Assembly (NCBI GenBank): GCA_038064855.1
Contig: JBBTSE010000007.1
Coordinates: 18,079 to 82,078, forward strand
DNA length: 64,000 nt
Origin: Patescibacteria group bacterium
GTDB lineage: Bacteria > Patescibacteriota > Minisyncoccia > Ryanbacterales > GWA2-47-10b
Direction: 5' to 3'
The number at the start of each line of letters is the position of its first letter. Positions within the stretch are counted from its first letter, which is position 1. Positions 61,859 through 64,000 of the stretch are shown in pieces. Both the position numbers and the translations under genes were made by a program. The notes under the pieces are model-generated. The model was not told the origin of the DNA, did not search any database, and worked only from the letters and a program-made list of their open reading frames with translations.

Positions 61859-62090
61859 TAATGTTTGTATAGTAAGGTTAGTAATGTTTATATAATCTCT
61901 ATCAATGTTTTAAGAAAAAATATGAATACAATAAGAAGTCACCAGAGGGCATAAAAGGACTCCAGAGCGATCAAAACATTTTTCTAAAGTATTATTCTTT
62001 CCACAAGGATTTGCTAAAAAGGGAGATTTATCGCTATCTCCTTTTTTTCTTTCATTTACAATATAAATCAGGTATCCGATACATCATCGG

Positions 62091-64000
62091 ATGACTGATA
62101 TGAAAGAAAAAAAGCAAGAATTTATTCCCGTATCGGAAGCATCTCAAGACACTCCGTACAGCACGGAGTATTTGAGTTTGCTTTGTCGTAAGGGCAAAAT
62201 TGAATCAAAAAAAATTGGACGCAACTGGTATACAACCAAAGAGGCCGTGCGCAAGTATTTGGCAAAGCAAATTGCCCAACGCAATTCGAGCGTATCGATG
62301 CTCGATACCTATGCCACGACACTCTTCCAAAAACCAGAGGCACACTTTACCACTGCAGGTCCTGCAGAATTGCGCGCATGGGAAGATGTCGCAGAGCCAG
62401 CACAAAAACAAGAAAAGAAATCACTTGAAATTTATCCTCAACTCGATTCATCTCTCGACCTCAAAAGCGATACGCTTTTTGAAAAGTTTATCGGCAAATT
62501 TATGGCTTTCATGGATGTCTCTATCGAAGGTCATTTTGGTTTTACACATCGCTTATGGCGCCGCATCAAAAAGGAGGCAAAAGAAATAATCACCAACAAG
62601 CGCACATTCACGATTTTATTTTTTCTTGTCATATTGTTGGTGCTTTCTCCCGCGCGTGTATTGTTGAGTGCGGCAGACGATGCTATCTTCGCGGCGTATG
62701 AAAAAATACGCGATTCCGAAACATTGATGGGTCATCGCGCGGGTACGCATGCCAATGAAGTTTTGTTGCTTGATAAAAATGGCAATGTAGCAATCTATGG
62801 CAATGTAATCTCTGATAATACTATCGAAGCCGGCGGTCAGTTGATCTCAAATATCACAGATGGTACTGCACCGATTAAAGTGCGTTCGATGACAAAAGTA
62901 GAAAATCTCAACGCTGATTTTCTCGATGGTATTTCTACCGAACAAATGACATTAGCGTTTGTAACTAAAAACGGCAATATCACCTATGACGATGTGTACT
63001 TGGAGGGCAAGGTCGAGGTGGGTAAGACGCTCTTGGTAAAAGGAGCTACTCATCTCTTGCAATCATTGCAGGTTGATGGGGGTCTTGCGGTATTGGGTGA
63101 CGCAGTATTTTCAAAGGGCCTTAAGGTACATGGCGATATCAATACGCGAAATCTTTTTGCGCAAGATTATGTGACTGCGAGAATCCTACAAGGTGAGACG
63201 ATCATGGGTACAAAAGAAATATATGCTCCCCAAATCTATGCGACTCAAAGTTTACGCGGGAATAATTTACTTGTGGATGGTCAGAGCGTCTTTCAAGGTA
63301 TGAGTATGCACAATGGTGGGCTGTCAGCAAAGTTTGGCTCGTTTGATATAGTGCTTGAGGTAGCAGGTGATTTCGGCGCGTATGGGAAAACGGTTAATCT
63401 TGGTGCAGCAGGATCTAGTAAAATTTTCGCCAAGGGTACTGCATTTACTTTTAATGGATCTACGGTATGTACTGCGGGGAATGGTAGTTGTGCGGCCGGC
63501 ACTACTTATTTTGATGGCAAAAATATTTCTCTCGATGGTACCACTTTTAATCTTGATACTAATCTTTATTCCCTCGGCAATATTTTTGCTACTTCTTCGG
63601 GCTCTGTATACGCATCAAGTACTATACAGGCTTCGGGTAATATTTTTGGTTATAGCTCATTGGGTCTTGGTACGACATCGCCCGCGCGTGTTTTAAGTGT
63701 AGAAGGAGACGCGATTATCACAGGCGCTCTCAAGGTGGGGCCCCTGACGAGTACAAGCACTATCAGTTGTGATTCTCTTGATACCAATGCCGCAGGTCTT
63801 ATCATCTGTGGTACTGATGCTACGGGCGGTGGTTCTACGGTACCTAATCTCGTGTATCGCGCGTTTAGCGGTACAAAGTACTTTACCGCTTCATCAACTG
63901 TCGATCAGTTTGCTTTTCGCTTTGCCGATGGTTTTGTCTCTTCGGCGTCATCTTCAATCGCTGGGTCACTGACTGTCTCCGAGTCGATAAATGCCTCGAG
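62091..64000 (+). CDS. HTH_17 (excisionase/MerR-like) N-terminal domain + TM + large extracellular beta-helical repeat protein (3' partial, runs off right edge)
   Basis: Frame open from 62091 to window end; absent from ORF track because no stop lies in the window. [53 protein letters not shown]. Gly/Asn/Thr-rich repeats follow. Confidence 0.65.

Follow-up and report, generated by a model that had tools for sequence, protein, structure and literature searches.

The closest described counterparts of the gene reported here come from several groups of proteins. ToxR, TcpP, and CadC are bitopic, with an N-terminal cytoplasmic winged helix, one transmembrane (TM) helix, and an extracytoplasmic domain; in ToxR and CadC, the winged helix-turn-helix (HTH) is of the OmpR/PhoB type (Trans_reg_C) and the extracytoplasmic part is a compact periplasmic sensor. 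RodZ is also bitopic, with an N-terminal cytoplasmic HTH of the Xre type, one TM helix, and a small periplasmic domain. Proteins of the Xis and BldC type are small and soluble, and the related RacA tethers DNA to a membrane-associated site. We analyzed a 64,000-nucleotide stretch of DNA (here called the window) from a Patescibacteria group bacterium (GenBank assembly GCA_038064855.1, contig JBBTSE010000007.1, positions 18,079 to 82,078). The window ends within a gene (62100..64000, plus strand) predicted to encode a giant bitopic surface fiber with a winged-helix head in the cytoplasm, and a 21-bp palindrome lies directly ahead of this gene. Patescibacteria (candidate phyla radiation [CPR]) are ultra-small, mostly episymbiotic bacteria, and to our knowledge little is known about their host attachment and gene regulation.

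The fiber protein shares the layout of ToxR, TcpP, and CadC, and DNA binding from the membrane is also what we propose for it. In contrast to ToxR and CadC, its head is of the MerR/excisionase type, with zero Trans_reg_C matches even at an E value of ≤1, and its ectodomain is fiber-like rather than a compact sensor (at least 650 aa for the window protein, with relatives of nearly 7,000 aa, in Patescibacteria hosts). The head has the same fold as Xis, RdfS, TorI, BldC, and RacA (about 2 Å over about 50 residues) and the same KIGRxW wing motif. Unlike those of the Xis and BldC type, it sits at the N-terminal tip of a giant membrane protein or, in Fic proteins, at the C terminus, and it belongs to a subfamily of its own with tight conservation (PYSxEYLSLLARKGK), whose members mostly score under the Pfam threshold. 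Gly/Ser/Thr-rich beta repeats, and a Peptidase_S74 intramolecular chaperone at the end of complete relatives, are shared with phage tail fibers and tailspikes of the endosialidase type, but the protein is a cellular one rather than a virion component; its N-terminal TM helix fixes it in the cytoplasmic membrane, with the HTH on the cytoplasmic side. The known kinds are membrane-tethered DNA-binding proteins and giant fiber adhesins, here with an unusually clean, testable protein-DNA pairing. Judged by sequence comparison, the window protein represents a Patescibacteria family of giant surface fibers with a DNA-binding-type cytoplasmic tip that is undescribed so far. In the freely accessible literature that we searched, a giant-gene preprint included, neither HTH-headed CPR giants nor the upstream palindrome is described.

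From the ATG at 62100, the open reading frame (ORF) continues for 633 codons without a stop to 63998, the frame being read to the end of the window (an alternative in-frame ATG lies at 62091). An earlier, sequence-only reading of this stretch had noted that the ORF was missing from its supplied ORF track because the stop lies beyond the window. This is the case: the frame continues in a 100% identical database protein of 841 aa (P0001; P numbers denote proteins and L numbers denote loci), which is labeled partial and is encoded on a 322-kb Patescibacteria metagenome-assembled genome contig. Since P0001 is marked partial at 841 aa, the gene also leaves its source contig, about 0.6 kb past the window. 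In two near-identical metagenomic relatives (L130 and L131), the ORF is at least 1,060 aa long, being still open after approximately that length. The closest orthologue comes from "Candidatus Ryanbacteria." Nearly all head-bearing fiber genes are cut off by a contig end (L001, L002, L004, L005, L007, and many of L009 to L128), and their database entries are labeled partial. Internal repeats evidently break short-read assemblies, so the true length of these genes and their number per genome are systematically underestimated.

The head spans approximately aa 8 to 60 (62115..62285, plus strand) and was assigned from profile matches, predicted fold, and composition. It is basic, with an isoelectric point of 9.8 and a net charge of +7. 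The window protein matches Pfam HTH_17 (PF12728) at an E value of 0.011 with 16.4 bits, and the isolated head scores 21.5 bits; the gathering score is 27. Across the family, 38 of the 42 aligned heads match HTH_17 at an E value of ≤0.01 (best, 1.4e-8), two relatives exceed the gathering score (P0038 with 28.2 bits and P0058 with 28.6 bits), and excisionase families of the PHROG database match heads as well. A sequence search of the PDB with the head profile gave zero matches even at an E value of ≤10. AlphaFold2 modeled aa 9 to 60 with a predicted local distance difference test (pLDDT) score of about 95 and in the order beta-alpha-alpha-beta-beta-alpha (strands at 9 to 10, 36 to 39, and 42 to 45; helices at 11 to 17, 22 to 30, and 47 to 75). 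The model contains all the elements of a winged helix, namely, strand, helix, recognition helix, beta-hairpin wing, and C-terminal helix. Its best local structural matches (1.8 to 2.9 Å over about 50 residues) are the SoxR-DNA complex, BldC, Pukovnik Xis, TraN, RdfS, RacA, and TorI. Nearly all close structural neighbors of the head are double-stranded DNA binders; CbpM, a MerR-like protein binder, and PDB entry 3ZEC are also among the matches. The sequence-only reading had placed an excisionase-type HTH at the N terminus, which holds at the family level, though the window protein itself stays below the HTH_17 cutoff. Its concern that the match could be spurious is removed by the 38 matching heads, the confidently predicted fold, and the superposition on MerR- and Xis-type structures. 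At the level of family and predicted fold, the HTH is real.

The combination of head, one TM helix, and a membrane-proximal module (GTHANE/NLNAD) recurs in about 55 of 56 homologues, all from Patescibacteria and with identities down to 30%. We then searched 1.84 billion representative proteins, clustered at 50% identity, with the head profile. It matched 6,941 clusters at an E value of ≤1e-3 and 2,370 at ≤1e-10, with protein lengths of up to 6,890 aa, and tandem double or triple heads were common among the matches. Among the listed representatives of ≥450 aa, 54 of 61 had a TM helix 130 to 430 aa from the N terminus, and most lacked the GTHANE module, so that the head-plus-TM cassette is joined to varied giant ectodomains. 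Head columns are on average 62% identical among aligned homologues, whatever the ectodomain. Two complete head-bearing relatives (P0228, 3,688 aa; P0186, 2,823 aa) end in Peptidase_S74, and Peptidase_S74 genes adjoin the relatives L006 and L008. When a 60-aa head profile was used in a separate protein search, every match was ≤105 aa long; these proteins were mostly on short contigs, were probably N-terminal fragments, and were uninformative on architecture. The architecture had at first appeared to be an oddity, but it belongs to a very large Patescibacteria family. One could still suspect a frameshift or chimera of a small excisionase-type gene and a surface protein gene, or a spurious HTH, given the position at a contig end and the subthreshold Pfam score of the window protein. 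The probability of such an artifact is negligible: the frame is continuous, the fold of the head is confidently predicted, and the approximately 55 homologues, which stem from independent assemblies, have the same fusion, as do thousands of clusters. This also disposes of the frameshift between HTH and repeat protein that the sequence-only reading had named as a possible refutation.

Between the head and the membrane lies a linker of about 110 aa with two predicted juxtamembrane helices. The sequence-only reading had placed a TM helix after the HTH, and topology prediction agrees, giving a single helix at aa 171 to 189 (62610..62666, plus strand) in an N-in/C-out orientation; AlphaFold2 places helices at 167 to 182 and 185 to 207. 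The flanking charge averages +3.05 on the N side versus +0.2 on the C side; of 55 homologues, 50 are more positive on the N side. This supports the N-in/C-out topology. The membrane-proximal module follows at 62712..63071 (plus strand). It is defined by nearly invariant alignment columns, with an APIxV.S. motif among them, and characterizes the family; neither Pfam nor NCBIfam has a model matching it, and no NCBIfam family was found for the window protein. Its pLDDT score is <50 in both monomer models (whole-model means of 53 to 56), and such poor modeling as a monomer would fit an obligate oligomer.

The next segment (aa ~325 to 425; 63072..63374, plus strand) is predicted to be beta-solenoid-like, with strands of 3 to 4 residues, 2-residue turns, and pLDDT scores of 75 to 90. 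Subthreshold matches to Bactofilin, a beta-helix family, fall in this segment in 6 of 56 homologues, and its top Foldseek neighbors are all beta-helices, none of them significant (E > 0.2). These indications of a beta-helix are weak but consistent. A region rich in Gly, Ser, Ala, and Thr with internal repeats (63375..64000, plus strand, assigned from composition) continues past the window; P0001 repeats residues 666 to 688 at 818 to 840. Tail fiber families of PHROG match distal parts of homologues. The sequence-only reading had described a giant, G/N/T-rich beta-helical ectodomain with pectate-lyase-like repeats. It is giant and fiber-like, but its composition is G/S/A/T rich, the beta-helix has the weak indications just given, and pectate-lyase or Beta_helix Pfam families had zero matches in the window protein and 56 homologues, the relatives pointing to fibers of the tail fiber type with Peptidase_S74. 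The fiber is probably trimeric and tail fiber-like, and it may serve in attachment to host cells. Two homologues (P0045 and P0052) have a precomputed match to PF26696 that was not reproduced with a local Pfam scan; this family may cover part of the ectodomain.

The palindrome, an inverted repeat TATCCGATA-CAT-CATCGGATG at 62073..62093 (not assigned to a strand), ends 6 nt before the ATG and is a copy, with two mismatches, of the family consensus TATCCGATA-N3-TATCGGATA. Its core in the window, ATCCGAT-N5-ATCGGAT (62074 to 62092), occurs once in the 64 kb, where 0.00 occurrences are expected by chance. The sequence-only reading had pointed to a palindrome, ATCATCGGATGA, abutting the start; it is present, and it lies within this larger inverted repeat, which is the meaningful unit and a weak copy of the consensus. 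We found the palindrome upstream of all eight loci that were fetched by protein similarity, including the distant members L006, L007, and L008. The other four ATCCGATA half-sites of the window were considered as a possible regulon and rejected, as all four lie inside long coding ORFs.

To look at the association from the DNA side, we searched one genome of each GTDB species for exact matches to the 18-base palindrome and obtained at least 120 loci. Among the 120 matches listed, 36 had a head ORF beside the perfect palindrome, and in 35 of these 36, the head started 25 to 820 nt downstream in the orientation of the gene. All titled head-positive loci among the matches listed were Patescibacteria or contigs binned as Aenigmatarchaeota, and none of the approximately 55 titled loci of other phyla among them had a head. 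In the reverse direction, we took 80 metagenomic loci (L129 to L208) that were picked by the head protein alone. The palindrome (≤3 of 18 mismatches, within 500 nt upstream) was present in 59 of them, 27 times in perfect form and always with the N3 spacer; shuffled controls had it in 0 of 80 cases and far-upstream controls in 1 of 60. Its distance to the start codon ranged from 42 to 444 nt. Exact half-sites were concentrated between -400 and 0 of the head (132 of approximately 176), with almost none elsewhere. Eleven of the 21 loci that appeared to lack a palindrome encode Fic-HTH proteins (see below), whose sites lie about 780 to 800 nt before the head, i.e., at the start of their own gene. 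The pairing of palindrome and head gene is tight and specific.

The 8-nt core of the half-site is invariant, there are almost no compensatory changes, and some changes are uncompensated (L151 and L152); an invariant core with almost no compensatory change fits sequence-specific recognition by a protein. Additional single half-sites occur in either orientation, and everted arrangements are found upstream of Fic-HTH genes. The head of L006 is of a KIGKTW subfamily, and its sites are spaced differently. A symmetric 3-nt spacer was rejected, as positions 10 and 12 are biased to Y/R and not complementary. The inverted repeat could instead be mainly an RNA element, a 5'-proximal hairpin in the fiber mRNA that serves stability or ribosome access and is possibly protein bound. 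A conserved -10-like box precedes it, so it is probably transcribed; in the window, it folds into a stable hairpin (ΔG of -15.4 kcal/mol; z of -5.2) that ends 1 nt before the AUG, and the stem ends show one G-C swap and a few changes compatible with G-U pairing. This explanation is nevertheless quite unlikely. The core is invariant phylum-wide with next to no covariation and with the uncompensated changes just mentioned, isolated half-sites in both orientations and the everted arrangements are unable to form the hairpin, the distance to the start codon is variable, and there is no Rfam match.

We distinguished three genomic contexts of head genes. In context A, a gene for a signal peptidase I-like (S26) protein lies directly upstream on the same strand and no MerR gene is nearby (the window, L001 to L006, and L129 to L138). 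In context B, a divergent gene for a small (60 to 82 aa) canonical MerR-type protein lies 340 to 710 nt upstream of the fiber gene, as seen in 48 of the 80 loci; examples are L007 (4274 to 4522, minus strand) and L008 (4401 to 4625, minus strand), with the palindrome in the shared intergenic region. Context C consists of soluble Fic proteins of about 315 aa (HPFxDGNGR; Pfam Fic, 1e-24) with the same head subfamily at the C terminus. Their genes begin right after half-sites (ATCCGATA) or palindromes, with no further regulator gene alongside. They are found at L185 (a tandem pair, 1177 to 2124 and 2224 to 3171), L128 (1840 to 2757), L049, L098, L099, L161, L163, L194, and L203. Fic proteins with a C-terminal winged helix are known, as in Shewanella oneidensis (PDB 3ZEC), and those of CPR and DPANN share the head subfamily and the ATCCGATA sites with the fiber proteins; unlike the latter, they are soluble enzymes with neither a TM helix nor a fiber. 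The head is the only component common to the three contexts, which, by the comparative genomics logic used for autoregulated DNA binders, makes the head family the leading candidate for reading ATCCGATA. Heads in tandem pairs or triplets would fit paired half-sites.

Several Fic-HTH genes are on Aenigmatarchaeota-binned contigs with archaeal-looking neighbors, a hint of exchange between CPR and DPANN. In context B, perfect heptamer tandem repeats of four to five copies stand by the start of the small MerR gene (AGTGAGT in L141, L146, L147, and L148; AGCGTTT in L142 and L149) and could be slipped-strand or phase variation tracts.

Context B also gives rise to a different explanation, in which a separate soluble regulator (the small divergent MerR protein, or a Fic-HTH protein in trans) uses the palindrome as its operator and the fiber head has a non-DNA role, such as partner binding, marking for export or assembly, or anchoring to the cytoskeleton or division machinery. 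The small MerR gene co-occurs with the palindrome outside the S26 context, and the extreme conservation of the head whatever the ectodomain is what one would expect for a universal protein partner. RodZ is a precedent for a protein-binding HTH: its HTH binds MreB, and CbpM, which is among the structural neighbors of the head, binds CbpA. RodZ differs from the fiber protein, beyond its HTH class and small periplasmic domain, in having no conserved upstream operator. Contexts A and C, on the other hand, have palindromes or half-sites without a MerR gene nearby, and if a Fic-HTH protein is the binder, the fiber heads, whose recognition helix has an identical sequence, would be expected to bind as well. 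The strongly basic charge of the head and the predominance of double-stranded DNA binders among its close structural neighbors also speak for DNA binding. The small MerR protein is a candidate coregulator and, in context B, a serious alternative to the head as binder, but overall we regard a separate soluble regulator as somewhat unlikely.

Our favored reading, to which we give about an even chance, is that the head binds the palindrome of its own gene, in membrane-tethered autoregulation or gene tethering. The product would be an N-terminally anchored giant fiber, with the winged-helix head in the cytoplasm, followed by the linker and the TM helix, and with the module and a long beta-rich shaft outside. 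The cognate half-site of the head would be ATCCGATA, arranged as TATCCGATA-N3-TATCGGATA in the part of its own gene region that separates the -10-like box from the start codon, and it would be bound by heads that are oligomerized on the cytoplasmic side of the membrane. Binding would repress or gate transcription of a very expensive fiber gene and would keep the gene at the membrane, following the logic of ToxR and CadC with another HTH class. That the head rather than another factor is the binder, and the sign of the regulation, we infer from the comparative evidence. The sequence-only reading had suggested a membrane-tethered one-component regulator; its architecture is confirmed, and the palindrome found phylum-wide at head genes lends this idea circumstantial support.

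Several points weigh against autoregulation by the head. The HTH_17 score of the window protein is under the Pfam threshold, and the Foldseek E values for the head are not significant, the query being the whole 841-aa model. The palindrome of the window is degenerate, with 2 of 18 mismatches and perfect arms of 7 bp, and about 10 of the 80 head genes have no detectable site. A trimeric fiber is not readily mapped onto a two-fold symmetric site. The stable RNA hairpin next to the AUG points to a possible RNA-level role for the repeat, and the divergent small MerR-type gene beside the palindrome in 48 of 80 loci is the obvious alternative binder; such a gene is absent from the window, but the source genome may have one elsewhere.

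In an improbable variant of autoregulation by the head, head and palindrome would together be a cotranslational cis device. The nascent head would bind the operator of its own gene while RNA polymerase is still near the promoter, and TM insertion would pin gene, mRNA, ribosome, and translocon at the membrane, with reinitiation blocked. If true, this would be a "transertion anchor" for giant fibers across Patescibacteria during the minutes of synthesis of a protein of several thousand residues, and it might report the state of the fiber (host contact or shedding) back to the gene.

The finding of a very large giant-fiber family with one conserved head, paired with a phylum-wide 21-bp cis element, has several uses. 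The protein-DNA pair is cheap to probe by electrophoretic mobility shift assay with a 60-aa domain and a 21-bp oligonucleotide such as TATCCGATACGATATCGGATA. It offers a candidate route for coupling the production of surface fibers to the chromosome from the membrane. Head and palindrome together are a sequence marker for assembly-breaking genes that are mostly annotated as "hypothetical, partial," and they flag the degenerate signal peptidase partner and the Fic-HTH proteins as parts of one regulatory vocabulary.

Upstream of the fiber gene, the minus strand carries fmt, def, and priA and the plus strand carries the S26-like gene, a bacterial housekeeping context. The S26-like gene (61364..61858, plus strand; 164 aa) matches Pfam Peptidase_S26 at an E value of 6.7e-13. 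In alignments with PDB sequences, the catalytic Ser is replaced by Ala (DNAMAPEF versus GSSMEPTL) and the Lys by Arg (LRRIIALPEE versus VKRIIGLPGD), and box E is lost. The S26-like proteins of L001 to L004 and L129 to L138 also lack the catalytic residues (A, N, or T for Ser; R, S, or G for Lys) and box E, whereas the L006 homologue is intact (GDSM, KR, and GDNR..S.DSR). The protein of the window is thus probably a catalytically dead pseudoenzyme, and its pairing with the fiber gene is kept also in places where the neighboring genes differ. SipA/LepA is a catalytically inactive signal peptidase homologue needed for pilus assembly in Streptococcus pyogenes. Like it, the present protein is an S26 family member without the Ser/Lys dyad whose gene adjoins that of a surface fiber, but the phylum and the type of fiber are different and there is no sortase context. 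A chaperone role may be considered by analogy to SipA/LepA only.

In a further reading, a proteolytic pathway similar to Notch or regulated intramembrane proteolysis would free the head upon host contact or shedding, and the soluble head would then control a wider regulon in contact-dependent signaling. Small-residue motifs after the TM helix (LLSAA|DD; GGFSFG in relatives) and the conserved S26-family neighbor are compatible with this. The adjoining S26-like protein, however, is without catalytic residues in the clade of the fiber gene, no site-2 protease or other protease is linked, and the only palindrome of the window is at the fiber gene itself, the remaining half-sites being intragenic. 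Release of the head by proteolysis is very unlikely.

The 241-nt intergenic region ahead of the fiber gene is 91.7% identical to that of the orthologue L001, while the flanking genes are only 74 to 81% identical, and aligning relatives at 38 to 55% protein identity revealed further conserved blocks. AT-rich direct repeats of TTAGTAATGTTT[G/A]TATA (61855..61894, plus strand) comprise two copies (61855 to 61871 and 61878 to 61894) with a degenerate one between them. The repeats represent a TAAKGTTT box found throughout the family, which is kept in L002, L004, and L006 and, in the 80 loci, is enriched between -700 and -200 of head genes and absent upstream of Fic-HTH genes. The two repeats noted by the sequence-only reading are therefore present, conserved, and enriched in the family, but their count alone is not significant within the window. 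It had named them as the site at which to test HTH binding; the best operator candidate is instead the start codon palindrome, and the AT-rich repeats are a separate conserved box.

Further downstream, CTTTCCACA (61997..62005, plus strand) is one mismatch from TTATCCACA, a DnaA-box-like 9-mer that is conserved upstream of the family. Its TCCACA core is invariant in 11 of 12 aligned relatives of context A; the TTATCCACA of L006 is aligned a few columns downstream, and perfect copies are present in L006 and L007. In the 80 loci, TTATCMAC has 83 matches between -600 and 0 of head genes versus 25 in all other bins. The 9-mer TTATC(C/A)ACA usually stands 17 to 20 nt ahead of a TATAAT-like hexamer (L006 at ~4910, L007 at ~4683 in reverse, and many of L139 to L208). 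As a general promoter element of the source genome, TTATCMACA was rejected, with 5 matches versus 2.4 expected in the 64 kb.

A terminator-like hairpin with a T-run (62016..62049, plus strand; ΔG of -13 kcal/mol and z of -3.5) separates the S26-like gene from the fiber promoter region; in L130, L133, L137, and L138, its stem covaries and the T-run is retained. The conserved -10-like hexamer TACAAT (62057..62062, plus strand) lies 8 to 10 nt upstream of the palindrome, and TACAAT, TATAAT, or TACTAT is found at this position in relatives of context A except L006. A generic sigma-70 scan called zero plus-strand promoters upstream of the fiber gene and did not call this hexamer, and an Rfam scan of 61700 to 62300 gave only subthreshold noise. 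The T-run CTTTTTTTCTTTCAT (62041 to 62055) is perfectly complementary over 15 nt to the start of the ORF, ATGAAAGAAAAAAAG (62100 to 62114). In a read-through transcript, this pairing would bury the start codon (83-nt fold; ΔG of -29 kcal/mol and z of -7.4), but it may be a mere by-product of a T-run facing Lys-rich codons.

Within the 64-kb window, we found no paralogue of the fiber gene, no small MerR gene, no second S26 gene, and no second head. Four kilobases upstream, a 482-aa surface protein (56535 to 57983, plus strand) begins with a signal or anchor and also has a peptidoglycan-binding-like segment plus a PKD domain (PKD_4; E value of 1e-6), and the orthologous contig L001 also has this PKD domain gene.

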